A stretch of DNA of 32,000 nucleotides from NCBI GenBank assembly GCA_016699145.1, contig CP064962.1, positions 1,290,001-1,322,000 on the forward strand, read 5' to 3'. The notes under the pieces were generated by a model, which worked only from the letters and a program-made list of their open reading frames with translations, had not been told where the DNA came from and did not search any database. The DNA comes from Candidatus Saccharimonadota bacterium. GTDB taxonomy: Bacteria > Patescibacteriota > Gracilibacteria > UBA1369 > 2-02-FULL-48-14. Each line of letters starts with the position of its first letter. The first letter of the stretch is position 1. Positions 9,932 through 31,697 of the stretch are shown piece by piece. The translations under genes and the position numbers were made by a program.

Positions 9932-10789
9932 TCAAAGAGTAACTTGTTTGCGTGCCGCTGTCACGGTATTCATCAGCAAGCAGGCTACGGTCATGGGCCC
10001 CACGCCTCCAGGAACAGGAGTGATCATAGAGACCTTGGGTTCCACAGTTTCAAAATCCACATCTCCACACAGTTTTCCGTCTTCCGTGCGATGCATGCCC
10101 ACGTCGATCACAATGGCTCCTTCTTTCACCATGTCGGCTTTCACAAAACGAGGCTTGCCCACGGCAGCGACGAGCAAATCCGCCTCACGAGTGAATTTTT
10201 CTAAATCTTTGGTTTTACTGTGGCAAATCGTCACGGTGGCGTCGCGGTTCAAAAGCATCACTCCCATGGGTTTGCCCACAATATTGCTGCGTCCAATCAC
10301 TACGATGTTCATGCCGGATACATCGATCTTATAAAACTCCAAAATCTTGGTGATTCCCTTGGGTGTGCAAGGTGCCATGTTTTCAAATTCAGCGCTCAAA
10401 AACATTTTGCCCACATTATAGGCTTGGAATCCATCCACATCTTTCACGGGATCAATGGCTTTGATGATTTTTGAAACCTCCAAATGCTTGGGAATCGGCA
10501 ATTGCAAAATCATGCCATGCACTTCAGGATCATGATTGAGTCGCTCAATTTCAGCGATAAGCGCATCTTGGCTGATGCTTGCAGGCAATTCCAATTTTTC
10601 ACTGAGCATGCCCACTTTTTCACACGCTTCTTGCTTTTTGCGAACATAGACTTGGCTCGCAGCATTTTCACCCACAAAAATCACCACAAGTTTTGGGAAA
10701 ACACCCTTCTGCTTCAGTTCCTCCACGTCGCGTTGCACTTCAGCGAGCAGAGAATCAGAAACCGCGCGTCCATCCAGGATTTGTGCCAT
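9932..10789 (-). CDS. folD: Bifunctional methylenetetrahydrofolate dehydrogenase/methenyl-THF cyclohydrolase
   Basis: Motifs YVRKKQEACEKVGM, VIGRSNIVGKPM and TPVPGGVGPMTVA are present. Confidence 0.92.
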   Translation of the reverse strand: MAQILDGRAVSDSLLAEVQRDVEELKQKGVFPKLVVIFVGENAASQVYVRKKQEACEKVGMLSEKLELPASISQDALIAEIERLNHDPEVHGMILQLPIPKHLEVSKIIKAIDPVKDVDGFQAYNVGKMFLSAEFENMAPCTPKGITKILEFYKIDVSGMNIVVIGRSNIVGKPMGVMLLNRDATVTICHSKTKDLEKFTREADLLVAAVGKPRFVKADMVKEGAIVIDVGMHRTEDGKLCGDVDFETVEPKVSMITPVPGGVGPMTVACLLMNTVTAARKQVTL

Positions 10790-10815
10790 TGGCTTTTGAG
10801 ATTCGGGCCTCCATT

Positions 10816-11412
10816 CTAGCGGCTTAGACGACTAAGATGCAACTTCTCTTCAACAAGCCCCCACAAGCGTTGGGCAACTTCTTCAATACTTCCTTCTACG
10901 GGAACTTTCAGCCAGCCATATTTTTGGCCCAGTTCCAGATGAATTTGACGAGAGCGTTCCATGAAATCAGGGTTGCTTTCGTGGATGTGCGCCTTTTCGG
11001 CAGCATGCCCAAAACGTTCCCCATCGAGTAAAATGGCCAAATCTTCTTTTATGAGCCCTGCATTCAAAGCCTCCAGCCATTCTACTTTTGCACCTTTCAC
11101 CGTGCCCCAGGCCAATCCCGTTCCCGTATAATCCTCTGCTACTACTATTTTTCCCTCCGCCAGCCAAGCCTGCAAAGTGGGTTGAAACTGATAGCGATTC
11201 AAGGTGAACCACATCTGTAACTCCTCCTCAGTGATGGTTTGAGCAGCTCCACTCCTCAAAAACTCATTTAAATAAGGTCCGGTGGGTTCTACGTCATAAA
11301 CTGGATATTTCACATAAACCGCATCTCGTCCGGCAGCTTTCAATCGATCCACCAGCAACTTTGCTTGAGTGGTTTTCCCTATATTGTTGATGCCGTACAA
11401 AGTGATGAGCAT
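10816..11412 (-). CDS. Thymidylate (dTMP) kinase-like P-loop nucleotide kinase
   Basis: A P-loop-like GINNIGKTTQ is followed by LVDRL...G as in Tmk-family kinases. The specific substrate cannot be inferred. Confidence 0.55.
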   Translation of the reverse strand: MLITLYGINNIGKTTQAKLLVDRLKAAGRDAVYVKYPVYDVEPTGPYLNEFLRSGAAQTITEEELQMWFTLNRYQFQPTLQAWLAEGKIVVAEDYTGTGLAWGTVKGAKVEWLEALNAGLIKEDLAILLDGERFGHAAEKAHIHESNPDFMERSRQIHLELGQKYGWLKVPVEGSIEEVAQRLWGLVEEKLHLSRLSR

Positions 11413-11419
11413 ACAATGA

Positions 11420-12664
11420 TTATTGCTTTTCCATTATGACGAGGTCCCATGGTAACACGAAATCATTCTTTGTGAGAGGGTAGGAGTTCTCCGTAGGCGC
11501 AAGGATGATACCGGGCCCTATATCCAAACGGGGGTAAGCTTCTCTAAAAGCTTGAATGCCACGTGCATCGGAGCGTTTTGGGTGGCTGTCGGCCTTGATT
11601 TCAATGGGAAAGTAACGACCATCTTTTTCTAAAATGAGATCGACTTCGGATCCGGAATGGAGCCGCCAATGATACAATTTAGGGGATGTACTCATGGCGC
11701 TGCATTGCTTGTGAAGCTCCATCACCACAGCAGTTTCAAAAAGTGCCCCTAAAAGAGGATGGCTTGCAATGCTTTGAGGTGAAGAAATGGCCTGCAGGGC
11801 ACAGACGAGTCCCGTATCTACGCAGTAGCCCTTAGGTTTTCGACTCAATCTTTTGATTAGATTTCCAGAAAAAGCAGGTATCTCAAACCACTGAAAACTA
11901 GCTTTAAGCAAGTCCAAATAATGTCTGGCAGTTTGAGGAGAAAGACCAAATTCTCGGCCCATCTGCGAATAGTTCACTTCTTGTGCGCTAAGTGCAGCGC
12001 TTAAAGCAACAAATCGATTGAAAAGTTGAAGATTGGATATATCCGCCATCAAGCGAACGTCACGTTCGATGTAGCTACGAATGTAAGATTGATAATAATC
12101 TGGAACCGTTTCTAGTGGAATCACTTGAGCTTCTGGGTAGAACCCCCTCCACAACTGTTCATAGAGTGTAGTTTTTTGTAGCGGGCGACTGTGTTTTGCT
12201 CTTAAAAAGGCTTCTGGATCTTTCAAGAAAGTGTCTAGCCATGGAGAAAAATCATCGTTGATTTCGTAAAAAGAAAAAGGAGGCAAATCCAAAAAAACAG
12301 CTCGTCCAGCTAGACTTTCAGAAATAGATTTCATGACACCCCACTGTTGAGAGCCAGTGATGATGTATTGACCTGGTTTACGATTCTTATCGACCCGGCG
12401 TTTAATCACAGCTAAAAGATCAGGGGCATATTGAATCTCATCTAAAATGAGTGGAGTGGGATGGTGGTCCAAAAAAAGCTCAGGATCCTGGCGAGCATTG
12501 CCAATATCAATCACAGGGTCAAAGACAATATAATCAAAGCCTGCGCCAAACTCATGATTGAGCAAGGTGCTTTTTCCCACTTGTCGCGCGCCTGAAAGAA
12601 CCACCACCGGGAAGGTTTCTACTAAAAACTTCAGTCTATCTGTGATCAATCGGCGTCTGTACAT
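11420..12664 (-). CDS. AAA+ ATPase with C-terminal DUF4143-type domain
   Basis: It has Walker A GARQVGKST and Walker B-like LILDEIQ. The length (414 aa) and the C-terminal EVDLILE...PIEIK pattern are typical of the AAA_14/DUF4143 family. Confidence 0.7.
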   Translation of the reverse strand: MYRRRLITDRLKFLVETFPVVVLSGARQVGKSTLLNHEFGAGFDYIVFDPVIDIGNARQDPELFLDHHPTPLILDEIQYAPDLLAVIKRRVDKNRKPGQYIITGSQQWGVMKSISESLAGRAVFLDLPPFSFYEINDDFSPWLDTFLKDPEAFLRAKHSRPLQKTTLYEQLWRGFYPEAQVIPLETVPDYYQSYIRSYIERDVRLMADISNLQLFNRFVALSAALSAQEVNYSQMGREFGLSPQTARHYLDLLKASFQWFEIPAFSGNLIKRLSRKPKGYCVDTGLVCALQAISSPQSIASHPLLGALFETAVVMELHKQCSAMSTSPKLYHWRLHSGSEVDLILEKDGRYFPIEIKADSHPKRSDARGIQAFREAYPRLDIGPGIILAPTENSYPLTKNDFVLPWDLVIMEKQ

Positions 12665-12706
12665 ACTCGAATTTTAACAGTCAGACTGTTAAATATCAAG
12701 CCAAAA

Positions 12707-13135
12707 CTAGTCCGTACTCCCAAATCCACCCCGGCTTTCTTCACGAATACTGTCCACTTCCAACCAGTCAAACTTGTCCACTCGTACAAAGACCCCCTGA
12801 GCAATCTTTTCGCCGCGTTCCACGGTCACCGGAGCATCCGAAAAATTATAAACCTGGATTTTAAGTTCATCTTGGGGGCCGCAATAATCTCGATCAATCA
12901 CCCCAAAACCATGCGGAGGAGTGAGGCCCTTCTTTTTAGGTGTGCTGCTGCGAGAAGCCACCGCCAGCATATAACCTTTAGGCACTTCTACGATCACGTT
13001 CCCCGGCACCAACTCGATTTTCCCAGGTTCTATCACCACCGTTTCCCGCGCCACCAAATCAAATCCCACACTGCCCTCGGTGGCATAAGTGGGAAGGGGA
13101 AGGCTTTTGTCGATGCGTTGGATGCGGATTTGCAT
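12707..13135 (-). CDS. dut: dUTP diphosphatase
   Basis: GSVGFDL, GVIDRDYCG and the C-terminal RGGFGSTD are dUTPase motifs, and the 142-aa length fits. Confidence 0.88.
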   Translation of the reverse strand: MQIRIQRIDKSLPLPTYATEGSVGFDLVARETVVIEPGKIELVPGNVIVEVPKGYMLAVASRSSTPKKKGLTPPHGFGVIDRDYCGPQDELKIQVYNFSDAPVTVERGEKIAQGVFVRVDKFDWLEVDSIREESRGGFGSTD

Positions 13136-13166
13136 GACGCAACTTTAGCATGAAGTCATCAACACT

Positions 13167-13200
13167 AGTCAATTGACTAAAGTAGGAAAAGATTTATAAT
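13167..13200 (+). promoter_or_regulatory. Promoter for 13207 gene: TTGACT (13173-13178), 16 nt, TATAAT (13195-13200), embedded in the perfect palindrome AGTCAATTGACT (13167-13178)
   Basis: The hexamers were read directly. The -10 ends 6 nt before the ATG at 13207, which implies a leaderless or near-leaderless transcript. Confidence 0.55.
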
Positions 13201-13206
13201 AAAAGC

Positions 13207-13818
13207 ATGAATCAGCTCTTACGAATAGGATTACTAGCCGCCACGACAATGACATCTGGGAGTCTGAAAGAAAGGACTCCAGCTCAAGTTGATTCTATCC
13301 ATCAAGAGAATCGTAGAGAAGGGGAAGGCACCATCCCAAATTGGGTGAATGACTACCAAAAATTACTCGAGCAAGCCGTCAAACAAGAAAAAGTCAGCTC
13401 AGCAGAAGCTCCCCAAACTGAAGACGTTGATCAAGAGATCAACTTAACATTGGAACGCAATCAACGTACCAACACAGAAGAACAATTTTGGACAACAGCT
13501 TCAAAACTGGAGGAACAATTGAATCGAAAAAATTTACGCTTTGCTTTAGAAAGTGATTTTGCTCAACCTGAAAAAGGAACTCTAGTACTGAGAGATGGCG
13601 AATGGATGTATAAGCTCAGTTTACCAAATAAGGGACAGGTCAATTTAGCTTATCAATACAATGTTCTTTTTGAAGAATTTGAATGGAAAAATGGGGAATT
13701 TGAACGCAGGGATGAAAAAGTAATTCAGTCCAATTTAATAAACTTACTGGTAGAAAAAATTGCAAACGAATTTATTCAAGCCAATCCCATAAAGCCTGAA
13801 GGAGCTGTTCAAGAATAA
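13207..13818 (+). CDS. Hypothetical protein (no recognisable family), AT-rich orphan
   Basis: It is a 203-aa ORF with a strong promoter upstream and a terminator downstream. Two 60-nt lines I counted give 38% and 28% GC, against 55% for one rplA line. Confidence 0.55.
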   Translation: MNQLLRIGLLAATTMTSGSLKERTPAQVDSIHQENRREGEGTIPNWVNDYQKLLEQAVKQEKVSSAEAPQTEDVDQEINLTLERNQRTNTEEQFWTTASKLEEQLNRKNLRFALESDFAQPEKGTLVLRDGEWMYKLSLPNKGQVNLAYQYNVLFEEFEWKNGEFERRDEKVIQSNLINLLVEKIANEFIQANPIKPEGAVQE

Positions 13819-13838
13819 AGAGCCCCTTTCGGAGCTCT
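13811..13838 (-). terminator. Rho-independent terminator serving rplA (minus strand): AGAGCTCC-GAAA-GGGGCTCT followed by TTATTCTT
   Basis: An 8-bp stem with one mismatch sits at 13819-13838 with a GNRA loop on the minus strand. The U-rich tract runs into the 3' end of the convergent gene. Confidence 0.5.
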
Positions 13839-13857
13839 TTGAGGGAAGCACATTCAG

Positions 13858-13875
13858 GCCGCATTGCGGCTTTTT
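13858..13875 (+). terminator. Rho-independent terminator serving the 13207 gene (plus strand): GCCGC-ATT-GCGGC followed by TTTTT
   Basis: A GC-only 5-bp stem at 13858-13870 is followed by T5 at 13871-13875, and the T-tract overlaps the rplA stop codon. Confidence 0.5.
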
Positions 13876-14572
13876 ATAAACTGCTGAGGGTTTCGTTCAC
13901 CGTTACCTTCACAGCAGGTCCCATAGACGCACAAAGGGTGATGGTGTTGATGAAGTTTCCCTTCACGGCAGCCGGTTTCTTTTCATTCACAGCCTTGAGA
14001 TAGCTAGCGATGTTTTCTTCGAGTTGTTTGGCTCCGAAAGAAGCTTTTCCCACTACATTGTGCAGATTTCCTTGCTTGTCATTGCGGAATTCCACCTGTC
14101 CTTTGATGAGATCGGCAATCACTCCGGTCACATTGGGAGTAACGGTTCCAGATTTAGGATTGGGCATGAGTCCTGCCTGACCGAGTTGGCGAGCCACCTT
14201 GGCAAGGTTCTTCATCATATCGGGAGTGGCCACAGCAACATCAAAGTCGAGCCATCCTTTCTCAATCTTTTCAACGAGTTCATTGGCACCGGCTTCAATC
14301 GCTCCTGCTTCCTTGGCTTCCTTAACCTTGTCTTCGGTCACGAAAGCCACCACACGCACCTTTTTACCGGTTCCATGAGGCAAAGCCACTGTAGAACGGA
14401 TCATTTGTTCCGCTTGAGTGGGATCGATCCCCAGGTTCAAATGGATCTCGATTGAAGAATCAAACTTGGTGCTTGCGGTTTCTTTAACCAGCGCAGCCGC
14501 TTCATTAAGAGGATAAAGCTTTCCAGCTTCGATCTTTCCAAGCGCGGCTTGGTACTTTTTACCGTGAGACAT
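13874..14572 (-). CDS. rplA: 50S ribosomal protein L1
   Basis: MSHGKKYQAALGKIE...YPLNEAAALVKE...KFDSSIEIHLNLGIDP is typical L1. Confidence 0.92.
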   Translation of the reverse strand: MSHGKKYQAALGKIEAGKLYPLNEAAALVKETASTKFDSSIEIHLNLGIDPTQAEQMIRSTVALPHGTGKKVRVVAFVTEDKVKEAKEAGAIEAGANELVEKIEKGWLDFDVAVATPDMMKNLAKVARQLGQAGLMPNPKSGTVTPNVTGVIADLIKGQVEFRNDKQGNLHNVVGKASFGAKQLEENIASYLKAVNEKKPAAVKGNFINTITLCASMGPAVKVTVNETLSSL

Positions 14573-14586
14573 ACTAGAGGGGTTAT

Positions 14587-14615
14587 GGGGTGCGAACGAT
14601 CTTGCGATCTCCCCC
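14587..14615 (-). promoter_or_regulatory. Structured element in the rplK-rplA spacer (GGGG-A-GAUC-GCAA-GAUC-GUUCGCA-CCCC), candidate L1 autoregulatory site
   Basis: Read on the minus strand, it forms two short helices separated by an asymmetric internal loop and capped by a GNRA tetraloop. It lies 15 nt upstream of the rplA ATG. The function is inferred only. Confidence 0.3.
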
Positions 14616-14628
14616 GTGAATTATTAGA

Positions 14629-15057
14629 TTACCACTCAACCTTAACTCCCATGCTGCGAGCGGTTCCAGCCATGATTTTCATAGCGGCTTCCACATCATT
14701 GGCATTGAGGTCTTCCATCTTTTCTTTAGCAATTTCTTCGAGTTGAGCGCGAGTGATGGTTCCAACCTTATCCTTGTGAGGAACAGCAGAACCCTTCTCG
14801 AGATTGATGGCTTTTTTGATCAAAATCGCAGCCGGAGCCTTCTTCATGATGAAGCTGAAGCTTCGATCTTCATAAATCGTGATGATACAAGGAACAATTG
14901 TGTCCCCGAGAGGTCGGGTTTTTTCATTGAATTCCTGGCAAAAACCTTGCAAATTCACTCCGTGTGGACCGAGAGCGGTTCCGACTGGAGGTGCTGGGTT
15001 TGCCTTTCCTGCAGGGATTTGCAGTTTGACAATCGCGTTGATCTTTTTAGGAGCCAT
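14629..15057 (-). CDS. rplK: 50S ribosomal protein L11
   Basis: [25 protein letters not shown] is the L11 signature. Confidence 0.93.
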
Positions 15058-15080: not shown

Positions 15081-15704
15081 CTACTGAAGACTCTTTAGGA
15101 TGTCAAATAGTTTTTTCATCTTTTCATGTTCCGTTTGTGCGTACTCAAAACCATAAATGCGCTTCCCATACAAAGCGACCATGTGCACGGTCTTCACTTT
15201 ACTCTTATGATTGAAGTAAAACGAAGCATCTCCATACATGTTGACTTCATTCACGGTTCCCAGGTCGGGAAGAGCTTTAGCGGCTTCGCGCAAAGTCAAA
15301 TAAGCCTGAAAAGATCCGGTATCGGTCGGATAAACGATTTCATAAAAACTGCCCACATAGCGTTCTCCATCAAAAAAATTGAGTTGTGAAAGCTGGGACT
15401 GACTGGCATCGCTGAAGGGAATAATCTGAAAAATCAAGCCTGAAAAAAGAGCTTCTTTCACCACTGGAAGCGTAAAGCCCGCCTGGGTGAGCAAATCTCC
15501 AGTGATCCATGAAGGACTTTTTTCTTCTTGCAGTTCCACTTCTTCCTCCACAGGTTCCGTGTCCAGTGGCTCGGGGATTTCTTCCACGGTTTGATTCTCT
15601 TCCACCGCAGGGTCTTCACCCAAATAATCATGAAAAAGCACATCCACCGTCGCCAGCACCACGACTAGGGAAAGAAGCAGAGAAAATACGGTGAATTTTT
15701 GCAT
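15081..15704 (-). CDS. Hypothetical membrane-anchored protein (N-terminal TM/signal anchor, acidic E/P-rich linker, ~130-aa globular domain)
   Basis: [20 protein letters not shown] is the hydrophobic anchor and [21 protein letters not shown] the linker. I recognise no family. It sits co-directionally 17 nt downstream of nusG and 23 nt upstream of rplK. Confidence 0.6.
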
Positions 15705-16501: not shown

Positions 16502-16600
16502 AGTAACGTGAGTTATGCCAAAAAAGCCTTGGGGCTTCATGACAAGTTCCATTAAACAGCAAATGGAGCATAAAAAGCAAGTGCTTTCTTTCCTGTTTTG

Positions 16601-16609
16601 TGCTAAAAT
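16601..16609 (+). promoter_or_regulatory. Candidate extended -10 element (TGcTAAAAT) for the pilin-like/PKD operon
   Basis: TG at 16601-16602 and TAAAAT at 16604-16609 lie in an AT-rich stretch 20 nt upstream of the ATG at 16629. I found no good -35. Confidence 0.3.
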
Positions 16610-16628
16610 AATAAGAATAAATAAACGT

Positions 16629-17561
16629 ATGGCCTTCAAAATAGGTAAAAAACACCTTTGCAGCTTCTTGCTTTCGGTCGTGCTCGCCCTAGTCTTGAAC
16701 CTTACGCTGGGGGCCCTGCCCACCGCTTTTGCCAGCAGCTTTCTGCCTCTTCCTGGCACCGAAGGTTTGAACATTGCCACGCCTGAAGGAAACACGGCCA
16801 TAGAAAAACTGGAAAACTTTTTAGGCCCCTTCGCTCGCAATTTGCGCATCATTTTAGGGGGACTCGCCGTACTTTTCATTGTAGTTTCAGGGTTCACAAT
16901 GGTGGTTTCCGGCGACAACGAAGAAACTGCAAAAACGCAAAGAAAATCCATTGTTTACGGCTGCATCGGCCTCATGATGATCAGCATTGCCGGGCCCATC
17001 GCAGAGGTTTTTGACTACCGACAGGGCAATTTCATCAGCGATCCCTCGGACTTCACGGAGCGGGTCCGAATTTTTGACAATGTCACTCAACTCATCATCA
17101 CTTTCCTCAAATATCTTTTAGGAGGACTCGCCACGCTCATGGCCGTTCGGGCGGGAGCCATGCTCGTGATGTCAGGGGACAATGACGACGACGTGAGTAA
17201 GGCAAAAAAACAACTCACGCTCAGTCTAGCGGGTTTGATGCTCATTTTCGTTTCCAATTTGGTGATCCGTCGTATTTTCTATGTTGCCACTTACAGCACC
17301 AATGCCGAAGCCACCATCGTGCAACTGGACCAAAACGAATTCATTCGCCAACTCGTGGCTGTCACCAATTTGATGATCAGTTTCTTAGGCCCCATCATGA
17401 TGCTGGGCATTGTGATTGGAGGCTTCCTTTACGTGACTTCTCAAGGGGAAGAAGAAAAGACGGGTCTCGCCAAAAAAATCATCACCAATTCCATCATTGG
17501 AATCGTCATTATTTATGGAGCTTTTGCCCTTGTTTCAACTCTTATTGCAGGTCAATTCTAA
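16629..17561 (+). CDS. Secreted/polytopic membrane protein built from three tandem two-TM pilin-like hairpin modules (TrbC/VirB2-like, T4SS_pilin-type as I recall the family)
   Basis: It has a signal peptide, MAFKIGKKHLCSFLLSVVLALVLNLTLGALPTAFA. The three modules lie at nt 16842-17012, 17103-17279 and 17370-17546. Each is a hydrophobic helix, then (V/M/T)S(G/Q)(D/G)(N/E)(E/D)-x-(K)AKK, then a second hydrophobic helix, for example IGGFLYVTSQGEEEKTGLAKKIITNSIIGIVIIYGAFAL. ATG at 16629 is preferred over 16515 because the signal peptide begins there. Confidence 0.7.
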   Translation: MAFKIGKKHLCSFLLSVVLALVLNLTLGALPTAFASSFLPLPGTEGLNIATPEGNTAIEKLENFLGPFARNLRIILGGLAVLFIVVSGFTMVVSGDNEETAKTQRKSIVYGCIGLMMISIAGPIAEVFDYRQGNFISDPSDFTERVRIFDNVTQLIITFLKYLLGGLATLMAVRAGAMLVMSGDNDDDVSKAKKQLTLSLAGLMLIFVSNLVIRRIFYVATYSTNAEATIVQLDQNEFIRQLVAVTNLMISFLGPIMMLGIVIGGFLYVTSQGEEEKTGLAKKIITNSIIGIVIIYGAFALVSTLIAGQF

Positions 17562-17564
17562 TTC

Positions 17565-18506
17565 ATGAAAAAAATCCTCTTCACTTTCGCCCTCGCTGTG
17601 CTCGCCTCCACCGCACCCCATGTGGCAGCCACGAGCATTCAATTCCAAGAAATTTTGGATGATTTTCAAGAAGACGTAGCCAGCGAAAGTCAAGATGTGC
17701 AAGAAGGAGCAGAAGGCATCACCTTGCCCAATTTCAGTGAAGATGCTGAGGAAGGGGCCGACATCATTGTGTTGACCATCCGCCGTTTTTTGGACTTTTT
17801 TAAACTGATTGTGGCTCCTTTTGCCGTGCTGTTCGCCGTCATCATGGGGGTACGCATGGTCTCTGCAGGTCAAGAAAATGAAGAAGTGGCAGGACAAGCA
17901 AAAAATTTCATCCGCTACGCCTTGGAAGGTCTCATCATTATTTTTATGTCCGATTCCATTGTGAATGTGATGTTTGGCGCCGAAGGAGAAGTCTTCAGAG
18001 AAGGACAAGCGGGAGTGCAAGAGTTTGCAACGCGCAGCAGCAATCTTTTTAAAGGGATTTATACTTTGGTTCAAACCGTCATCGCCTCCATTGCCGTCTT
18101 TGTACTGGTCATGGCCGGGATGCGTTACGTGGTGGGTTCCACCAGTGACGACCAAATCGGTAAAGCCAAAAATCAGATCAAATGGGCCTTTGTGGGTCTT
18201 TTTGTGATTGGGATTTCTGAATTTGTGGTCAAAGATATCCTCTTTGAAAACTATGGACAAACTCTGGGAATCGAATCCGCCAAAGAACTCTTTGTGGATC
18301 TCACCAATTTTGTTTCAGGCACTTTGGGAACCTTGGCTTTCGTCATGCTCATTTACGCAGGTTTTTTATACCTCACCGCTTCTCAAAACGAGGACAATGC
18401 CGCTAAAGCCAAGAAGATCATTTTTGCCGCTTTGATTGGAATTGTGATCGCCATTTCGGCCTTTGCCATCACAAACACCTTTGTGGAGCTTGATGCTTCC
18501 CGATAA
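17565..18506 (+). CDS. Paralogous triple pilin-like hairpin membrane protein
   Basis: It has a signal peptide, MKKILFTFALAVLASTAPHVAA, followed by an acidic N-terminal region. The modules lie at nt 17796-17975, 18066-18245 and 18309-18485, for example IYAGFLYLTASQNEDNAAKAKKIIFAALIGIVIAISAFAI. It starts 3 nt after the upstream stop. Confidence 0.7.
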   Translation: MKKILFTFALAVLASTAPHVAATSIQFQEILDDFQEDVASESQDVQEGAEGITLPNFSEDAEEGADIIVLTIRRFLDFFKLIVAPFAVLFAVIMGVRMVSAGQENEEVAGQAKNFIRYALEGLIIIFMSDSIVNVMFGAEGEVFREGQAGVQEFATRSSNLFKGIYTLVQTVIASIAVFVLVMAGMRYVVGSTSDDQIGKAKNQIKWAFVGLFVIGISEFVVKDILFENYGQTLGIESAKELFVDLTNFVSGTLGTLAFVMLIYAGFLYLTASQNEDNAAKAKKIIFAALIGIVIAISAFAITNTFVELDASR

Positions 18507-18520
18507 CTCTCTATAATACT

Positions 18521-21500
18521 ATGGAAAGAATCCTCGCCATGACTTTAAAACCTCGTACCTTTCTCGCGACCCTGCTCCTCTTGAGCGGTCTCCTAACGGC
18601 CGTTCCGGTGGCTCAAGCCATCAGCGTTCCCATTGGGGATCAAGACTTGGAACAAGGGGATTTACAACCTGAAGATTGTGCCAATTTGGATGAAAGCTTA
18701 GCGGGTGCATTTGGCTGTGACACCAGCGATACCGTCACCGATTTTGTGGACTTCACCGGGGAATTGGAAGGACCCGATGCCGCCGGTTACGACGAAGCTC
18801 TCACCGAAAACACCAATGCGCGCGATTTCATTCAATCCGTCGTCAACTTTGCACTTTCTTTTGTGGGACTGATTTGTGTGGTCACCGTCATTTACGGAGG
18901 TCTCTTGTATGTGACCAGCCGTGGGGACGAAGAGCAAACCTCCAAAGCCAAAAAAGCCATCACTTATTCAGTGATTGGAATTGTGATCATCATGGGGTCC
19001 TTTGCCTTTGTGAACACCATTTTGCAGGTGGGCGGCGGGGGAAGCACAGGAGACGGCAACGGCACGGCTTTGAATGGAGAGACCATCAATGAATCGGGCG
19101 CCGCCTTCGACGTGAAAGACGTGCTCGACGAAATCGAACAAATCACCGAAGAATATGTGGAAGCCTATCAAACCTTGCTCGCAGTGAATAAAGAAGTGTC
19201 CTCGATGCAAGCCTTAGAAATGCCCGTAGTGGTGGAAGTGACAGAAAGGGAAAGAAGTTTAGGAGGAGTGATCGACTTCACCACCGAATATTTTACCGGT
19301 GAAGACGACGATTTCGCCGACACCTATACGGTTTTGGAAGAAGCGAGAGTGGATGCTTACACCACCAGCCTCGCTCGTGCCGCTCAAAACATCATGTCCG
19401 AAACCGATGCCCTGAGTGACACTTATGAAGACGCTTATCAATTGTATCAATATTTGCAATACGGCAGCCGAAATTTTGTGGCAGACGGTGACCCTGAGGC
19501 AGAGGCGTGTAACACGCTGAGTTTCAACGTTCGCGATAGAGAAGTGAATGGGAATTTGGGCTGGACCCGAACCGATGCCGAGGTGCAAGTGGTGGATCCT
19601 TACATTTGCAACTACATTGCCGCCATTTTGCAAAGCGCGGAATCCGACTACTTAGAAGTGATTGGAGATTCAGGTGTGGGGCTCATCGGTCGCTTTGAAG
19701 AATTGAAAGCGCTTTTCGACGTCAGTGAAAATGCAAGCGGTTCCAATCTCACCGGCATTGTGATGGCTTTGTCCAACGCACAAACCGCTTTGACCAATGC
19801 AAAAACCGTGATCAGCAACAGCACTATTCAAGAGATCCAATACGCTATGAACGAGCTTTATGAATTGGTGAAAAATGTCGAATTCGTTCAAGTGAGACTC
19901 ACCGCTACGGTGGTGGAGGGCAATGCGCCTTTGTTGGTGCGTTTTGATATTTTGGGTACGGAAGATCCCAGCGGAAACACAGTGGAAGATGCTCAAATTC
20001 AATGGGATTTGGATGGAAATGGAGTTTATGACGAAGCCGCAGTGGGTGAAGATTTAGGCGCAGATTCCATCAGTTACATTTTTGATCAAGCAGGCACTTA
20101 TAGAGTCAAAGTACGGGTGCTCAGTTCAGAACCCGACATTGCAGCAGGAGTTTCCACAGTGAGCATTCGAGTGCAGCCCGCAAAATCCCTCATCGTCATC
20201 AACGCCACAGTCGGTTCCAATGGCCCTCAAGCCATCGCCAACTTCATTCAGTCGCCAGCCATCAATAAGCCCAAGTTCAAAGTCACGGCCTCGGAAGCCT
20301 CCTCAGAAGCAGGGATTTTATTCGACGCCTCAGAAAGCACTGATGGAGAAGGAAACGTGTCTGGAATTCGCTATTATGAATGGGACTTTGGGGACAATGA
20401 AACAGAAGCCGGCAATTTTGAGCAAGCGGCCACCATTCGTCATTTCTATGCTCAAGAAGGAGTCTATGACGTGTCGCTGACCGTCACCGATCAAGATGGC
20501 GTGAAAGACAGCAAATACTTTAAACTTTACGTTGCCACCCCTGCAGCTCGCATCAATGCGTCTCCGGCCCTGGGCATCGCAGGCACGACCTTCACCTTAG
20601 ATGGATCTTCCTCCACCGCGGATGTCGGTTCGATTCGAAACTATCAATGGTCAGTGAGCAAGCAAGGAGGCGCCGCCATAAACCTTTCTCAAAACACCGG
20701 AAGCAGCATTCAAGTCACTTTAAACGAGCCTGGAATTTATGATGTGAACCTGAACGTATCCGACACTTCCTCTAAATCGGATGCAGCCACCGCCTTCGTG
20801 GTGGTGGAATCTCAAGCTCCTGTGGTGACTTACACCTATGAAATTGAAAATGAAAATCAGCCCTCCATTGTCACTTTCGACGCTCGAAACAGTTACGATC
20901 CCGACCCCAACGACCGCTTGGAATTTTCTTGGGATTTCGGCGGCTTTGAAGGGGAGGATTACATCATTCTAGAAGAATCGGAAGATCAATCGGAAGTCAC
21001 CGTTCAATTCTTAGACACCGGGGCTTACACCGTGCTGCTCACGGGTCACGATCAACACCCGCAGGCCATTCAAAAAAGCGACACAGCCACCGCCACCATT
21101 CAGGTGAATTCTATTTTGGATGTCGACCTCACAGTGAGCGGAGATGAAGCGCGGCATTTGAACCAAGATGGAGAAGCCGAAGTGGAATTCACTGCAGAAA
21201 GTGAATTCGGCTCCGCCTTTCAAATTGAATATGGAGACGGGGAAGTGGATTTTACCGACACACTCACCAATGGAAGAGCCATTTTCACTCATACTTACAA
21301 GCAAGCGGGGGTCTTTTATGTGAAACTCACCACCTACGATGACTCCGAACAGGAAGAAACCAACACCGACACTGTTCGTGTCTACATTGGCTCGGGCAAC
21401 GCCCCCATTGCCGTGATTGGAATTGGAGCCGAAAACACCGACATCGGTACAGGGCCCAGTTTTGTGGGCAGCGTGAAAACAACCTTCACCTTCTCTGCAA

Positions 21501-23368
21501 GCAATTCTGTGAATGTGGACGGCAGCAATCAAAACCTAACTTACAGTTGGAATTTTGGAGATGGCAGCACGGCGAATCAAGCGACCGTTACCCATAAATT
21601 TACAGAAAAAGCCACCTACAACGTCACCCTCACTGTGAAAGATAAAAACGACCCCAGCATCAGTGATGAAGCCGTGGTTCCCATTCAAATTCAAGGCATT
21701 GAGCCCAAAATCCAAAGCATTTCAGTGGTTCCCGTAAGCACCACCGAACTCACCACACCCCTCAAGGTCAACGTCTCGGTTACTGCTTCTGATGACGATG
21801 GAAAAATCACTTACATAAGAGGCTGGTATTACGACTTGGACGATTCCGCCACTCCACTCGGAACCGTGATTTCAGAATCCGGAAACTTCACTCTCACGCT
21901 CAACACCAACGGAGAAGAAGGTGAAAATAAAGAATACGGTTTTGCCGTGGAAGTCACCGACAACGACAACCAAACAGTGTCCAGTTTTGATCAACTCGAT
22001 CCCGCAGACATCCCCACGCTTTCTGTCATCAACGGGCCCAACGACAGTCCCGTAGCCTCTTTTTCAGTGGATAAATCTTCTCGTTACGTGGGGGAAGAAG
22101 TCACCTTTTCAAGCCTTTCTTACGACCCCGATGGAGAAATCGTGACCTACTGGTGGGACATTGAAGGCGATGGATTTTACAACAATGAGCCGACCCAAGT
22201 CAGCTCCTACACTTATGAATTTTCTCAAGTGCACAGTGAAGGCATCCCCGTGCGCTTAAAAGTGGAAGACAGTGCGGGCGCTACGGCTGAATCCGAACCC
22301 GTGATGATTTATGTGGACTCTTTGGCAGAAGATCCTGATGCCAAGTTTTTAACCGACATCGATGGCACTTATGTTCAGTTCCGTAACAATTCTTTTGTCG
22401 ACAGTGAAAACGGCGCAGAACTCGCCGGCACGTATTGGGATTTTGACCTGCAAAACGACAGCGATGGCAATGGAGTCAAAGACGACGACTTCGATTCTTT
22501 TGAAGAAAATCCCACATACAATTACGAAGAATTCGGTGTTTATAAAGTCAAAATGACCGTGGTGGACACCGTTGGACAAAGCGACACCGTGACGCAAGAC
22601 ATTGAAGTCAAAGAAACCGCCGCACCCGTGGCTGCCTTCACCTTCACCGTAGATGAAAAAAACGTTACTTTTAGGAACACCAGCACCGTGGACACCGAAC
22701 ATGGAGTGGACGTGCGCACTTACGCCTGGGATTTCGACACCACTCTAGATTCCAATGGCGATTCAGAAACGGACAATGACACTGATGCAGAATTGAAAAA
22801 CCCAAGCCACGAATACGCGGATTACGGCACTTATGAAGTGACCCTCACCGTGGTGGATACCTATGGAAAAATCGACACGGTCACTCAAACGGTGGAAATT
22901 GAAAATCCCATTCAAGCCTTGAATGCCATCTTAAGCAGCGTGCCTCAAGCCAATTCTTTGTCTCAAATTCTATTGAGGCAAGATGGCCAAGAAGTCAGTT
23001 TCTATTTTGGAGCCGAAGGGGGCAGTGAAGACTATCATTTCAGCTTGGATAAAAACATTTTTTACGACAGCAACGCGGATGGAATACGCGACAACGACGA
23101 AGATTACAGCTCTTCTTCACCGGGTTCTTGGAAAACTCCTTTCTTCATTTCTTACGGACAAATCGTGACCAAACTCACCGTAACCGACAATGAAACCGGC
23201 GACAGAGACATCAGCACCCTTCAAGTGGTCTTTGAAGGACACTTGGGAAGTGCTAATCTGTTCAATGCCACGCCCAAACAAATGGCACTGCTCATCTTGA
23301 GCGCCGCACTCACGGCTGCACTTGGAGTGAGCATGGCCTTTCGTTACAAACCTTTACCACGCCGCTAA
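18521..23368 (+). CDS. Giant (1615 aa) surface protein: signal peptide, one pilin-like hairpin module, ~290-aa helical region, ~11 PKD-like domains, C-terminal TM anchor
   Basis: The signal peptide is LATLLLLSGLLTAVPVAQA. The hairpin module at nt 18848-19024 reads IYGGLLYVTSRGDEEQTSKAKKAITYSVIGIVIIMGSFAF. PKD-type motifs recur (YEWDFGDN, YSWNFGDGSTANQATVTHKFTEKATYNVTLTVKD, YAWDFD...). The C-terminal sequence is MALLILSAALTAALGVSMAFRYKPLPRR. Confidence 0.8.
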   Translation: MERILAMTLKPRTFLATLLLLSGLLTAVPVAQAISVPIGDQDLEQGDLQPEDCANLDESLAGAFGCDTSDTVTDFVDFTGELEGPDAAGYDEALTENTNARDFIQSVVNFALSFVGLICVVTVIYGGLLYVTSRGDEEQTSKAKKAITYSVIGIVIIMGSFAFVNTILQVGGGGSTGDGNGTALNGETINESGAAFDVKDVLDEIEQITEEYVEAYQTLLAVNKEVSSMQALEMPVVVEVTERERSLGGVIDFTTEYFTGEDDDFADTYTVLEEARVDAYTTSLARAAQNIMSETDALSDTYEDAYQLYQYLQYGSRNFVADGDPEAEACNTLSFNVRDREVNGNLGWTRTDAEVQVVDPYICNYIAAILQSAESDYLEVIGDSGVGLIGRFEELKALFDVSENASGSNLTGIVMALSNAQTALTNAKTVISNSTIQEIQYAMNELYELVKNVEFVQVRLTATVVEGNAPLLVRFDILGTEDPSGNTVEDAQIQWDLDGNGVYDEAAVGEDLGADSISYIFDQAGTYRVKVRVLSSEPDIAAGVSTVSIRVQPAKSLIVINATVGSNGPQAIANFIQSPAINKPKFKVTASEASSEAGILFDASESTDGEGNVSGIRYYEWDFGDNETEAGNFEQAATIRHFYAQEGVYDVSLTVTDQDGVKDSKYFKLYVATPAARINASPALGIAGTTFTLDGSSSTADVGSIRNYQWSVSKQGGAAINLSQNTGSSIQVTLNEPGIYDVNLNVSDTSSKSDAATAFVVVESQAPVVTYTYEIENENQPSIVTFDARNSYDPDPNDRLEFSWDFGGFEGEDYIILEESEDQSEVTVQFLDTGAYTVLLTGHDQHPQAIQKSDTATATIQVNSILDVDLTVSGDEARHLNQDGEAEVEFTAESEFGSAFQIEYGDGEVDFTDTLTNGRAIFTHTYKQAGVFYVKLTTYDDSEQEETNTDTVRVYIGSGNAPIAVIGIGAENTDIGTGPSFVGSVKTTFTFSASNSVNVDGSNQNLTYSWNFGDGSTANQATVTHKFTEKATYNVTLTVKDKNDPSISDEAVVPIQIQGIEPKIQSISVVPVSTTELTTPLKVNVSVTASDDDGKITYIRGWYYDLDDSATPLGTVISESGNFTLTLNTNGEEGENKEYGFAVEVTDNDNQTVSSFDQLDPADIPTLSVINGPNDSPVASFSVDKSSRYVGEEVTFSSLSYDPDGEIVTYWWDIEGDGFYNNEPTQVSSYTYEFSQVHSEGIPVRLKVEDSAGATAESEPVMIYVDSLAEDPDAKFLTDIDGTYVQFRNNSFVDSENGAELAGTYWDFDLQNDSDGNGVKDDDFDSFEENPTYNYEEFGVYKVKMTVVDTVGQSDTVTQDIEVKETAAPVAAFTFTVDEKNVTFRNTSTVDTEHGVDVRTYAWDFDTTLDSNGDSETDNDTDAELKNPSHEYADYGTYEVTLTVVDTYGKIDTVTQTVEIENPIQALNAILSSVPQANSLSQILLRQDGQEVSFYFGAEGGSEDYHFSLDKNIFYDSNADGIRDNDEDYSSSSPGSWKTPFFISYGQIVTKLTVTDNETGDRDISTLQVVFEGHLGSANLFNATPKQMALLILSAALTAALGVSMAFRYKPLPRR
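19895..23236 (+). repeat. Array of ~11 PKD-like Ig-fold domains (protein-level repeats, diverged at DNA level)
   Basis: I counted by hand the recurrence of W-x-(F/L)-(G/D)-(D/G) ... Y-x-V-x-L-x-V-x-D blocks roughly every 85-110 aa. Confidence 0.7.
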
Positions 23369-23370: not shown

Positions 23371-25566
23371 ATGGATGTCACGCCCAATCCAATTCCAGAA
23401 AACAATCCAAATTTGGAAATGAAACCGAGTCCTGAGCCTGTGCCAAATGCTCCGTCACCTTTGCAAAATCCAGCGCCTCTGCAAAATTCCGCCTCTTTGC
23501 CCAATCCTGCTCCCAAAAAAACTCTGACTCCCGAAGAAAAAAAAGTCCAGCGCCAGGCCACGTTAAAACGCTTGGCCACGGTTTCAGTCGCCCTTTATGT
23601 CTTTCTTTTGTTGTTGATTTTTGCCTGGGGCACCTTCACCGCAGGGGTAGAACTCACGGTTTTTGATTACCTGCCGCTCAGCCAGAACACCTTCAGTGGA
23701 GCCTTGATGACTTTGTTTCATATTCTCTTAGGAGCCAGCGTTTTTATTTTGTTCTTCTACAGTTTAGTGGCTCTCCTTAAGTCCATGTTCACCAAAAAAG
23801 AAGAGGTGGAAAAAAAGAAAAAAGCGTCTCGAAAAGCATTGCTCGGAGGCTTGACCTTTCTCCTGTTTGCAGCCGCTTGGTTGGCGGGCATTTGGTATTT
23901 GGGGCCTCGTTTGGTGCTTACCGATCTTTACGAGTCTCCCATCAAAACCATTCCCACTCAAACGCTGGGTTTGACTTCTCCCGTTGAAATTCGTTTCGAT
24001 GCCAGTGGAATTCCGGTGGACACCAAGCTTTATAGAATTCTTTCTTACACCTGGGATTTTGGAGATGGAGCCACGGCCAATGGAGTCAGCACTGCACACA
24101 CTTACACGCAAAAAGCCACTGGAAACGGAATTTACACCGTGCTTCTTTCCGTGCGTTATGCCGATCTGAGCACGGGTGAACAATTTGAAGACACTTTCAA
24201 AACCACCGTGGCCATTGCCAATGAAAAGACAGCCGCCTATTTCACGGCCAATCCTGAAGCAGGGGAATTGCCCTTGAAAGTGCATTTCGACGCCACCAGT
24301 TCTTATGATCCCGACGGGGAAATTGTGGCCTACGAATGGGATTTCGACAACGACGGAAGTTTTGATGATGGAGAAGGAGAAGAAATCGATCACACCTTCA
24401 CTCAAGAAGGGGACTACCTCGTGTCTTTGCGCGTCACCGACAACAGTGGTGAATACAACACGGCCAGTCTCACCATTGAAGCGGGAAGCATTGGAGGCTT
24501 GCGTGCCGTCATCACCACCAACGTCGCAGAAGGGGAAGCCTACTACTTGGACGAAGAATATAAATTCGATGGCTCTCTTTCACAAATTGGAGAAGGGAAA
24601 ATCACTCAATACAGCTGGGATTTTGGAGATGGCAGTGTTGCCGTAAAGACGCGTTCCGTCAATCACCGTTTTGAAGCAGTGGGAGTTTATACGGTGGTGC
24701 TCACCGTGACCGATCCCGAAGGCAACAGCGATGAAAGCACGCTCGAAGTTCGGGTGGTGGAAGAAGGCTCCGCTCCCGAGGCAAAAATTTCTACGCTTCC
24801 AGCTTTAGAAAATAGAGCCGTTACGGGTCCGGTTCCTTTAGAAGTTCGTTTTGATGCCACTGCTTCTTTCGATGAAGAAAACGACATCGTGGACTATGAA
24901 TGGGATTTCGACAACGATGGAACGGTAGATGACACTGGGGACACCGCTACCCACACGTATCAAGTAGAAGGCTCTTTTGAAGCCCGCCTCATCACCACCG
25001 ACTCGGTTGGGAATGTGGACGAAGCCCTCGTGCCCATTGAAGTGACAGCTCAAGGACTCATCGCTCGTCTCGAAATCGATCAAAGCAATGGAGAAGTGCC
25101 GCTCACCGTTGAATTCGACGCCAGCGCATCGACCTACAAAGAAGGCAACATTGTCTCTTATGAATACGATTTTGGGGATGGAAGTGACAGCTACATTGGA
25201 GGCTCCAGCGTCACATATCGTTACAATGCCGTGGGTACTTTCACCGCCAGCGTCACCGTGATCGCGAGCGACGGAAAAAGAGGCAGCACCAGCGTTCAAA
25301 TTGTCGTTCGTCCTGTGGCTTTGACGGCTTGTTTCACCGTGAACACCGATTCCGGACAAGCACCCCTCTTCGTTTCTGTGGATCCTTCCTGTTCGGAGGG
25401 CACCGTGGATTCCTATCATTGGGATTTTGGCGACGGGGAAATCAGTTTTGACCGCAAACCCGAAACCCACACCTATTCCACTCCCGGCACCTACACCATC
25501 ACTTTAGAAGTGACCAGTGCAGAAGGAATCGTCAGCGTCTTTGAAAATGAAATCACCGTGCGCTAA
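23371..25566 (+). CDS. Polytopic membrane protein with Pro/Asn-rich N-terminal tail, 3 TM helices and 6 PKD domains
   Basis: The N-terminal tail reads PNPIPENNPNLEMKPSPEPVPNAPSPLQNPAPLQNSASLPNPAP. The TM helices are VSVALYVFLLLLIFAWGTF, ALMTLFHILLGASVFILFFYSLVALL and LLGGLTFLLFAAAWLAGIWYLG. Six WDFGDG/WDFDNDG PKD blocks follow. It starts 2 nt after the upstream stop. Confidence 0.8.
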   Translation: MDVTPNPIPENNPNLEMKPSPEPVPNAPSPLQNPAPLQNSASLPNPAPKKTLTPEEKKVQRQATLKRLATVSVALYVFLLLLIFAWGTFTAGVELTVFDYLPLSQNTFSGALMTLFHILLGASVFILFFYSLVALLKSMFTKKEEVEKKKKASRKALLGGLTFLLFAAAWLAGIWYLGPRLVLTDLYESPIKTIPTQTLGLTSPVEIRFDASGIPVDTKLYRILSYTWDFGDGATANGVSTAHTYTQKATGNGIYTVLLSVRYADLSTGEQFEDTFKTTVAIANEKTAAYFTANPEAGELPLKVHFDATSSYDPDGEIVAYEWDFDNDGSFDDGEGEEIDHTFTQEGDYLVSLRVTDNSGEYNTASLTIEAGSIGGLRAVITTNVAEGEAYYLDEEYKFDGSLSQIGEGKITQYSWDFGDGSVAVKTRSVNHRFEAVGVYTVVLTVTDPEGNSDESTLEVRVVEEGSAPEAKISTLPALENRAVTGPVPLEVRFDATASFDEENDIVDYEWDFDNDGTVDDTGDTATHTYQVEGSFEARLITTDSVGNVDEALVPIEVTAQGLIARLEIDQSNGEVPLTVEFDASASTYKEGNIVSYEYDFGDGSDSYIGGSSVTYRYNAVGTFTASVTVIASDGKRGSTSVQIVVRPVALTACFTVNTDSGQAPLFVSVDPSCSEGTVDSYHWDFGDGEISFDRKPETHTYSTPGTYTITLEVTSAEGIVSVFENEITVR
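23978..25563 (+). repeat. Array of 6 PKD domains
   Basis: The six blocks are SYTWDFGDGATANG, AYEWDFDNDGSFDDG, QYSWDFGDGSVAV, DYEWDFDNDGTVDD, SYEYDFGDGSDSY and SYHWDFGDGEISF. Each is followed by a Y-T-V/L-x-L-x-V-type strand. Confidence 0.8.
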
Positions 25567-30462: not shown

Positions 30463-31697
30463 ATGGACATTCTTGTGATTGGAGGAGGGGCAGCCGGCAT
30501 GATGGCCGCAGTGGAGGCTGTGCAAAATCCTCAGGCCAAAGTGATGCTCATCGAAAAAAATCCAGGCCTCGGACACAAAGTGCTCATTTCGGGTGGAGGT
30601 CGCTGCAACGTGACCACCGGTTTTCACGATCTTCGAGCTCTTGTTCAACGCTATCCACGTGGAGGAAAATTCTTGCAATCGGCTTTTTATCGTTTTTCAC
30701 CTCAGGCTGTGATGGATTGGTTTGAGACCCACGACGTGCCCTTAAAAGTGGAGGCAGACGGACGCGTTTTTCCTCAATCCGACAATGGCAAGGATGTGCT
30801 GGGCGCTCTCGAAAAATCCCTTCAAGCAAAGGGAGCAAAAATTCTGCTGCGAAAAGAAGTCGCCTCCATTCAAAAAGAGAGGCGTTTTCTCGTAACTCTC
30901 AAGTCCGGCGAAAGCTTCGAAGTGGACAAAGTCATTCTCACAACCGGTGGACAGGCCTATCGACACACGGGTTCCACAGGGGACGGCTATAGCTTTGCCG
31001 AAAGCTTGGGACATCACATCACACCGCTCGCTCCCAGCCTCAACTCTTTCATTGTGAAAGAAAATGGCCTCGTGAATTGGCGGGAGTTTCCCTCAAAAAA
31101 GTTCAGCTCAAAATCAAAACGAAGCAAAAATATGAATGGACGGGACCCATCCTCTTCACTCATAGAGGCATCACGGGGCCAGCTGTTTTTGCGCTTTCTT
31201 CCATGATCGCTTTTGAAAATTACAGTGAAAAAGAACCGCTACTCCTACTCTTAGATTTTTGCCCGGACACCAAGGCCAATGTGCTGGAAGAAGAGCTAAC
31301 GAAAGAACTCAAAGAAAACCCAAAAAAACAATTCAACAATCTGCTCGCTCGCTTCGTTCCTCGCTCGCTCGCCTTAAAACTCTGCGAAGCTCTGGCCCTC
31401 CCCGAAGAAAAAATCAGTGCCGAACTCAGCAAAAAAGATTTTCACCGAACACTTGAACTGCTTAAAAATTGCCCCATACAACTCATCGGGCGTGCCGCCG
31501 GGGAAGAATTCGTCACTGCCGGGGGAGTGGACACCGATGAAGTCGATCCTCGCAGCATGGAATCCAAAATCTGTCCCGACCTTTATTTTGCCGGAGAAAT
31601 TTTAAACGTGGATGGCTTCACGGGCGGTTTCAATTTACAAGCCGCTTGGGCCACCGGACATCTGGCAGGGGTCAGCGCCGCAGAACTCAAGGCTTGA
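30463..31697 (+). pseudogene. HI0933/YhiN-family FAD-dependent oxidoreductase, split by a 1-nt frameshift near 31060-31065
   Basis: The first frame carries VIGGGAAGMMAA and ISGGGRCNVT and runs to ...PSLNSFIVKE. The second frame continues KWPRELAGVSLKKVQLKI...GPILFTHRGITGPAVF...TAGGVDTDEVDP...AGEILNVDGFTGGFNLQ. Together the two ORFs (30463-31206 and 31077-31697) make one normal-length protein. Confidence 0.8.

Follow-up and report, generated by a model that had tools for sequence, protein, structure and literature searches.

A protein of 1615 amino acids (aa), here called g3, is encoded in a 32,000-nucleotide (nt) stretch of DNA from a Candidatus Saccharimonadota bacterium (contig CP064962.1, positions 1,290,001 to 1,322,000; hereafter the window). 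On balance, and judging from sequence, we lean towards reading g3 as a cell-surface protein of a membrane-embedded envelope or adhesion complex, in which VirB2-like hairpins would serve as anchors and not as subunits of a type IV secretion system (T4SS) pilus. The open reading frame (ORF) spans window positions 18521-23368 on the + strand, starts with ATG and is the third gene of a four-gene cassette, g1-g4. An earlier note on this DNA had regarded the fusion of a pilin-type module to an adhesin array as an unusual way of coupling an adhesin to a fibre or to the membrane; the fusion is not confined to this gene and was found to define a large conserved family.

Hydropathy analysis (Kyte-Doolittle, 19-aa averaging window) gave four hydrophobic segments in g3, at aa 12-39, 102-135, 145-173 and 1586-1609. 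The parts follow one another in the order signal peptide, acidic segment with a Cys pair, two-helix hairpin, Gly-rich linker, helical domain (~280 aa), 11-12 PKD/Ig domains, and a C-terminal transmembrane (TM) helix with a basic tail. The VirB2-like hairpin itself, at aa 102-168 (18824-19024, +), comprises TM1, the predicted cytoplasmic loop TSRGDEEQTSKAKK and TM2. Pfam model PF18895 (T4SS_pilin) matched aa 102-167 with 42.6 bits, well above the gathering cut-off of 26.6, and by this sequence match the hairpin belongs to that family. The TrbC/VirB2 model PF04956 remained below threshold (19.7 vs 27.9 bits), and NCBIfam NF045849 fell just below its cut-off (39.2 vs 40 bits). An AlphaFold2 (AF2) run on aa 34-480 with a 22-sequence alignment returned a helix-loop-helix made of two long helices, aa 100-132 and 137-170, with predicted local distance difference test (pLDDT) values of 77-86. 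The exact ORF, the Pfam match and the four hydrophobic segments agree with the earlier description of a membrane-anchored 1615-aa protein with a pilin-like hairpin. The homology of the hairpin is real, but it is not at the extreme N-terminus, lying behind a signal peptide and a 68-aa acidic segment, neither of which had been mentioned.

The hairpin was the most conserved part of the protein (63-75% identity in orthologs). It is followed by a flexible Gly-rich linker, QVGGGGSTGDGNG..., at aa 169-190 (19025-19090, +), recognized by its GGGG and by AF2, where pLDDT dropped to ~30 over aa 171-194, indicating disorder. The GGGG is conserved in close homologs. Stand-alone T4SS_pilin proteins of 121-131 aa (L012 8650-9045, and P0152-P0155) share the FAFVNTILQVG end with the g3 hairpin and are encoded beside murB, not beside a T4SS.

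The leader, aa 1-33 (18521-18619, +), has a basic n-region and a hydrophobic core and ends in VPVAQA, with IS following the predicted cleavage site. It is best read as a Sec-type signal peptide, its cleavage being deduced from the A-x-A motif. A hydrophobic segment at this position was present in almost all of 103 long g3 homologs. Potentially, the leader could be left uncleaved and kept as a signal anchor, which would give four TM helices and turn the acidic segment into a short extracellular loop, with all else as in the favoured model. The long n-region of g3 would fit this, as would the atypical leaders of the VirB2 family. We nevertheless consider an uncleaved leader very improbable: a canonical small-x-small motif (AQA) follows the hydrophobic core of ~20 residues, and no other part of the protein is less conserved than the leader, with 6-30% identity between orthologs, as expected of a peptide that is removed.

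The N-terminal ecto-segment that follows, aa 34-101 (68 aa; 18620-18823, +), is strongly acidic, with 18 Asp/Glu against one Lys/Arg. It contains the Cys pair C53/C66, invariant in the nearest homolog, and the motif ...TDF.DF.GEL..PDAAGYDEALT, which is invariant in that homolog and conserved family-wide; identity to the ortholog at the related locus L002 was 78% over the segment. A highly acidic ectodomain with two conserved Cys pairs (the second being in the helical domain) has the features of an extracellular protein. The Cys-x12-Cys loop behind the signal peptide was common in family members with a C-terminal TM helix (C-TM) and rare in the subfamily without one, which could mean that the two membrane-proximal ends interact. 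The pattern tracks clades, so that it is not independent evidence.

For the topology, charge distributions were compared across the family. In 92 members the hairpin loop carried a mean of 3.24 Lys+Arg, compared with 0.73 and 0.88 in the outside flanks (17 residues each side). In 63 C-terminal tails the mean was 4.35, against 0.83 just before the TM helix. In g3 itself the loop has four Lys/Arg, with KAKK at aa 142-145, and acidic flanks. This bias supports the earlier proposal, made by the positive-inside rule, that both the KAKK loop and the RYKPLPRR tail are cytoplasmic. Based on these data, g3 would be exported by Sec with removal of its signal peptide, and the hairpin would insert with the acidic N-terminal segment outside, TM1 running out-to-in, the basic loop in the cytoplasm and TM2 running in-to-out. 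About 1400 residues, namely the flexible Gly linker, the helical domain and the 11-12 PKD/Ig domains, would then lie outside the cell. In the clade of g3, the C-terminal helix (out-to-in) would act as a stop-transfer anchor with the RYKPLPRR tail inside, and the ectodomain would form a long loop tethered at both ends.

To place g3 in a family, an exhaustive profile search was performed with its N-terminal 480 aa as the query. This returned 112 cluster representatives (50% identity clusters) at E≤1e-30. Among the best 150 matches, 103 were at least 1000 aa long, mostly 1450-1750 aa, with the layout of signal peptide, acidic segment, hairpin and long ectodomain. The sharing of this layout by orthologs and by more than 100 distant homologs is far beyond chance. 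The hairpin module in particular was kept across the family, which answers the earlier call for an ortholog comparison. The best genome match was a metagenome-assembled genome named 'uncultured Candidatus Peribacteria bacterium', with 58% identity over the N-terminal 460 aa of g3 and a nearly identical NusG. The source of the window is accordingly read as a Peribacteria/Peregrinibacteria-like member of the Patescibacteria.

The genes on either side of g3 are co-oriented and tightly packed, with gaps of 3 nt (g1-g2), 14 nt (g2-g3) and 2 nt (g3-g4). The first, g1 (16515-17561, +; 348 aa), is a membrane protein that starts with a hydrophobic leader and contains three VirB2-like hairpins in tandem. 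PF18895 matched it with 77.3 bits in three stretches, and a hidden Markov model (HMM) of the family hairpin placed domains at aa 100-162, 192-255 and 280-344. The second, g2 (17565-18506, +; 313 aa), has a signal peptide and again three tandem VirB2-like hairpins (PF18895 97.9 bits in three stretches; hairpin HMM domains at aa 71-136, 163-226 and 238-307). Both passed the NF045849 cut-off of 40, with 44.2 and 57.3 bits, respectively. The fourth, g4 (23371-25566, +; 731 aa), combines a Pro-rich cytoplasmic N-tail with three TM helices (aa 63-98, 107-142 and 155-179) and six PKD domains (PKD_4 287.2 bits in six stretches). Its TM2, basic loop and TM3 are hairpin-like, but the hairpin HMM was not significant (independent E-value 0.2) and the NF045849 match was weak (E 0.008). 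The low-complexity start of g4 (first ~65 aa here) is Pro/Gln-rich. Such tails, of 35-135 aa before the three TM helices, were also seen at loci L005, L006, L008 and L011 and may be a cytoplasmic docking or regulatory region. A sigma-70-like match (18490-18517, +; TTGATG, 16 nt, TATAAT; 10/12) lies upstream of g3 and stops 4 nt short of its start codon; matches of this kind were no more frequent in the region than expected from shuffling.

This composition was then counted in ten contexts obtained by protein look-ups and in an 80-locus metagenome scan, which together included 51 unique complete g3 genes. Two multi-hairpin genes preceded g3 in 37 of the 39 loci with enough flank (exactly 3+3 hairpins in 35), and a g4 homolog with the same TM layout followed it in all 38 that could be scored on that side. 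nusG lay upstream of the cassette in 32/34 loci, and nearly every locus examined had the cassette beside secE-nusG-rplK-rplA. The lengths of g3 were narrowly distributed, with a median of 1604-1619 aa and an interquartile range of about 1577-1676; for the 51 metagenome genes the median was 1604 and the 5-95% range 1506-1883. Both g3 and g4 (median 762 aa) kept these tight lengths despite identities of 15-30%. The cassette was found in groundwater, lake, sediment and marine metagenomes. On the sequence record, these fixed counts across loci indicate that it is a vertically inherited, near-universal feature of one lineage. Two loci, L032 (g3 at 9899-14695) and L036 (g3 at 6677-11494), contained g3 and g4 without triple-hairpin genes or nusG upstream. 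Large unknown ORFs were found there instead and, in L036, also a helicase-methyltransferase (ResIII / Helicase_C / Methyltransf_11); the pair could be a relocated or second copy.

The C-terminal segment of g3, aa 1573-1615 plus the stop codon (23237-23368, +), consists of LGSANLFNATPKQ, the TM helix MALLILSAALTAALGVSMAF (aa 1586-1609) and the tail RYKPLPRR. It was nearly unchanged in the Peribacteria ortholog at L002 (LGSANLFNATPSQMALLLVSALLTAILGVSMAFRYKPLPRR), with 85-88% identity compared with ~65% for the Ig domains, and was also well kept in homolog P0002 (~70%). In close orthologs the segment is as conserved as the hairpin, more so than an unspecific anchor would require, which hints that the helix packs against particular partners in the membrane. 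Across the family, a C-TM was present in 63/98 long representatives and in 37/51 metagenome g3 genes, and one coherent subfamily ends directly behind the last Ig domain (...QEIKFK). The earlier note had proposed anchoring at both ends and had named a C-terminal helix that varies among orthologs as evidence against it. Its proposal stands for g3 and its closest full-length ortholog, where the helix is near-identical, and does not extend to the family as a whole. Because the C-TM is absent from about 27-36% of members, the hairpin would be the universal membrane anchor of the family and the second tether clade-specific.

The same segment could also be a sorting signal, an alternative that the earlier note had raised. 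Neither the last 70 aa nor full-length g3 matched any NCBIfam sorting-signal model, even at E≤10; the models covered LPXTG/sortase, PEP-CTERM, GlyGly-CTERM, PGF-CTERM, MYXO-CTERM and others. Likewise, no LPXTG, PEP, GG or PGF motif was present in LGSANLFNATPKQMALLILSAALTAALGVSMAFRYKPLPRR and no Cys signature was visible, so that a known sorting signal finds no support. An undescribed sortase-, exosortase- or rhombosortase-like enzyme might still read the series 'G-S-A-N-L-F ... TM ... basic tail' and remove the helix; this end of g3 would then be freed or attached to the wall, leaving the hairpin as the sole membrane anchor. A short motif followed by a TM helix and a basic tail is the anatomy of known sorting signals, close orthologs have kept the segment to an unusual degree, and the subfamily that lacks it indicates that the protein can work with a free C-terminus. 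Sortase A is, moreover, encoded by Peribacteria genomes (PMC4736985). The candidate motif before the helix, G-x-[AS]-N-[LIVM]-[FLYS], was however poorly conserved, the strict form occurring in 22/90 and the loose form in 48/90 C-TM-bearing members, and it lay 4-12 residues before the helix and did not abut it. In a given genome a sorting signal is normally carried by several unrelated proteins, whereas the tail was found on g3 only among all six-frame ORFs of the window and of loci L001-L009 (~1 Mb). No sortase or other candidate sorting enzyme was seen among the genes of the window. Processing of this kind is therefore improbable, and we read the segment, from its sequence, as a plain stop-transfer or tail anchor specific to some clades.

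Between hairpin and C-terminus, the ectodomain is made up of two parts. The helical domain, at aa ~186-462 (about 19076-19906, +), is family-specific and had no Pfam or NCBIfam match. In an iterative HMM search it was found directly behind the hairpin in 119/152 sequences. In the AF2 model of g3 aa 34-480 it folded separately, after the disordered linker. An AF2 model of the domain, built from 26 diverse aligned sequences, reached a pLDDT of 77.2 and a predicted template modelling score of 0.71. It showed a bundle of seven helices, the first of 34 residues, with two beta-hairpin insertions. A Foldseek search of this model against the Protein Data Bank (PDB) gave no match at E≤1e-3, and TM-scores were ≤0.25. 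The Cys pair C330/C363 lies within the domain and is invariant in the nearest homolog. These results match the earlier impression of a helical region with paired cysteines that resembled nothing recognizable, and the modelled domain would be one without a known fold that is conserved family-wide. Of all parts compared between orthologs, the domain was the most variable, at 28-53% identity against 63-75% for the hairpin. Such rapid evolution fits an exposed interaction surface, or can be explained simply by a tolerant helical fold.

The PKD/Ig-like array, aa 463-1572 (19907-23236, +), was delimited by Pfam matches and motif spacing. PKD_4 scored 229.5 bits in eight stretches, PKD 169.7 bits in seven and K319L-like_PKD 60.6 bits. 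Motifs of the W-D-F type recur at intervals of ~95 aa, interspersed with three to four degenerate modules, giving 11-12 modules, close to the approximately 11 domains counted earlier. With multiple above-threshold PKD domains behind a predicted signal peptide, g3 would be classed as a PKD-repeat surface protein. No tandem repeats were present in the array at the DNA level, which suggests that the domains are old; they share ~65% identity with those of the closest full-length ortholog. From typical domain sizes, the array plus the helical domain would extend to ~45-55 nm, or roughly half that as a double-anchored loop.

Taken together, the tight operon, the triplicated hairpins of g1 and g2 and the combination of a TM region with a PKD array in g4 point to one membrane-embedded complex. 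In the model that we favour, the g3 hairpin would be a membrane anchor and assembly module that is not extracted into a T4SS pilus. The products of g1-g4 would form a single complex in the membrane, with the Ig arrays projecting outwards across wall and S-layer. These would serve as surface fibrils for contact or adhesion, or the complex would be an envelope scaffold of fixed length.

Alternatively, the hairpin could be a true VirB2-type pilin module that is extracted from the membrane and polymerized, together with the g1/g2 hairpins or stand-alone pilins, by a T4SS encoded elsewhere. The Ig array would then be carried on the fibre surface, and the C-terminal helix would be removed or would hold the subunit at the fibre base. 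The termini of VirB2/TraA both face the outside of the pilus, so that a C-terminal extension could be displayed, and the subfamily without a C-TM is topologically compatible with extraction. The above-threshold match to PF18895 counts on the same side, as does the 63-65% identity of the g3 hairpin to the stand-alone pilin-like proteins. VirB2-like pilin arrays also occur widely among Patescibacteria, and for one cultured species they are essential (PMC12102498; PMC10633639). On the other side, the surroundings are housekeeping genes, and neither a T4SS ATPase nor any other T4SS Pfam family turned up among the genes of the window or among the large flanking ORFs of more than 50 loci (±10 kb), L032 and L036 included. 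The three covalently joined hairpins in each of g1 and g2 clash with a lattice of one hairpin per subunit, in this clade extraction would be prevented by the second TM anchor if that were not cleaved, and a Gly linker with a load of 1400 aa per subunit is sterically unlike any known VirB2 pilus. To our knowledge, no VirB2-type filament has been shown in any organism of the candidate phyla radiation (CPR). A CPR species whose thin filaments have been solved builds them from Pam pilins with an Ig fold (bioRxiv 10.64898/2026.03.03.709456). Considering the lack of T4SS genes at these loci, the triple hairpins, the 1400-aa load and the identity of the solved CPR filaments, a T4SS pilus role is less likely than a membrane complex, and we regard polymerization of g3 as a pilin as unlikely. 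The earlier suggestion of an adhesin coupled to a fibre is accordingly not favoured. T4SS pilins are also stand-alone proteins of ~70-130 aa when mature; g3, whose 1615 aa include an extension of 1450 aa and a further TM helix, falls outside that size range, and it differs from them in genomic context and probably in polymerization.

Several points nevertheless weigh against the membrane complex. T4SS genes may lie elsewhere in the genome, as the survey covered 32 kb here and ±10 kb per relative. The close identity of the hairpin to stand-alone hairpin proteins means that joining a hairpin polymer is possible. Since 27-36% of the family lacks the C-TM, double anchoring is not essential to the core function of the family, and recognition by a processing enzyme could explain just as well why close orthologs keep the C-terminal segment so nearly unchanged. 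The topology is drawn entirely from hydropathy and charge counts and complex formation entirely from synteny, and the function proposed for g3 is likewise deduced.

More speculatively, the cassette could encode an undescribed, T4SS-independent surface organelle that belongs to the vertically inherited core of the Peribacteria/Peregrinibacteria lineage. Seven or eight VirB2-like hairpins would form its membrane base, while Ig fibrils of fixed length, bearing the fastest-evolving helical domain of novel fold, would make contact with host cells or determine the dimensions of the envelope. This is possible, although we hold it with considerable doubt; if true, evolution would have put the VirB2 fold to a second use outside pili. 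What began as a single odd gene becomes a defined, testable system, an operon with fixed composition, gene lengths and chromosomal position in which the VirB2 hairpin is reused as a single unit, as a triplet and joined to a giant Ig array. Should the hairpins be a membrane assembly platform and not a pilus, the many CPR genes annotated as 'VirB2-like pilin' would have to be reinterpreted. If g3 is an ordinary tail-anchored adhesin, what is gained is a well-defined family and the warning that a 'T4SS_pilin' match does not imply a T4SS.

Upstream of the cassette, the − strand of the window carries purD, purF, folD, tmk, dut, rplA, rplK, nusG and secE. Downstream are a lyase of the class-II fumarase/aspartase type and ftsJ, gidB and rsmE-like genes. 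Between nusG and rplK lies a gene for a 207-aa protein (15081-15704, −) with an N-terminal TM helix and no Pfam match. Most related loci have a homolog of this protein ('hyp207', 204-282 aa) at this position; such a conserved insertion is unusual, as the secE-nusG-rplK-rplA cluster is otherwise universal. An AAA_14 / DUF4143 ATPase gene (11420-12664, −) separates tmk from dut. As these two are adjacent in L005 and L006, the ATPase gene looks like an insertion in this genome. Near the left edge of the window, where its ORF starts, a protein encoded at 226-1488 (+) has three C-terminal S-layer homology (SLH) domains (129.8 bits) and an acidic EEEPEEEPEDEPEDEPEDEPEE linker; the three domains indicate that the organism has an S-layer or an envelope anchored by secondary cell wall polymer (SCWP). 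A tRNA-Ala(GGC) gene (3253-3329, +) overlaps the first 40 nt of a Sua5/YrdC-like ORF (3290-4297), the true start of which is probably an internal Met a few codons downstream. At the other end of the window, an HI0933-like flavoprotein (199.6 bits over aa 2-217) is split into two overlapping ORFs in different frames (30463-31206 and 31077-31697, +). The split appears to be a frameshift, from a pseudogene or an assembly error.

Members of the CPR (Patescibacteria) are thought to depend on contact with other cells, yet an understanding of their surface has been reached for very few structures. Their genomes commonly encode giant Ig-repeat surface proteins. Full-text literature searches found no description of the cassette, and large extracellular proteins of Peribacteria and other CPR have been reported in general terms only (PMC4736985, PMC8080830). 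Among known systems, the VirB2/TrbC/TraA pilins (PF04956 and its CPR-rich sister PF18895) share with g3 a leader, two helices, a short basic cytoplasmic loop and both ends outside. These pilins, however, have ~70-130 aa and are encoded with virB4 and virB6, whereas g3 has a 1450-aa ectodomain, in this clade a second TM helix, housekeeping surroundings and triple-hairpin partners. The VirB2-like arrays of Patescibacteria (PMC12102498; the essential series of Ca. Southlakia epibionticum, PMC10633639) resemble the cassette in being tandem, mutually divergent hairpin genes in CPR. They differ in consisting of small pilin genes, often beside virB4, while g1-g4 have a fixed four-gene make-up and a fixed place beside secE-nusG. 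Neither paper describes a PKD-array fusion (PMC12102498 has 0 occurrences of 'PKD'), internally triplicated hairpins or such a cassette. The pilin-like conjugal transfer protein of the Mbov_0395 family (NF045849), from a Mycoplasma integrative conjugative element (ICE), is an 80-aa two-helix membrane hairpin like those in g1, g2 and g3; g3 lies just below its cut-off, has no ICE context and is ~20 times larger.

The tail-anchored or LPXTG-bearing Ig-repeat adhesins of monoderms are similar to g3 in their long surface array of Ig-like (PKD) domains and in the C-terminal hydrophobic helix with a basic tail. g3 has no LPXTG or other sorting motif and has an additional N-terminal hairpin anchor, and the number of its repeats is strikingly constant across the family. 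EsaA/YueB/PIP proteins also have a large ectodomain, thought to span the Gram-positive wall, that is held by TM segments at both ends. They showed no detected similarity to g3 in sequence or fold, and the TM arrangements and ectodomain folds differ. Finally, the CPR Pam pilus (PamA/B, PamR; bioRxiv 10.64898/2026.03.03.709456) is, like g3, a CPR-specific surface structure of Ig-like folds. The PKD domains of g3 weakly matched the PamR model NF058578 (44.5 bits vs an equivalog cut-off of 300) in Ig-like stretches only, and Pam pili assemble through donor-strand exchange, for which they use chaperone-usher-like factors that are absent from the g3 locus. What sets g3 apart from all of these systems is that a VirB2-fold hairpin is reused, probably to anchor a giant Ig-array protein that also has a novel helical domain, in a conserved uncharacterized operon.

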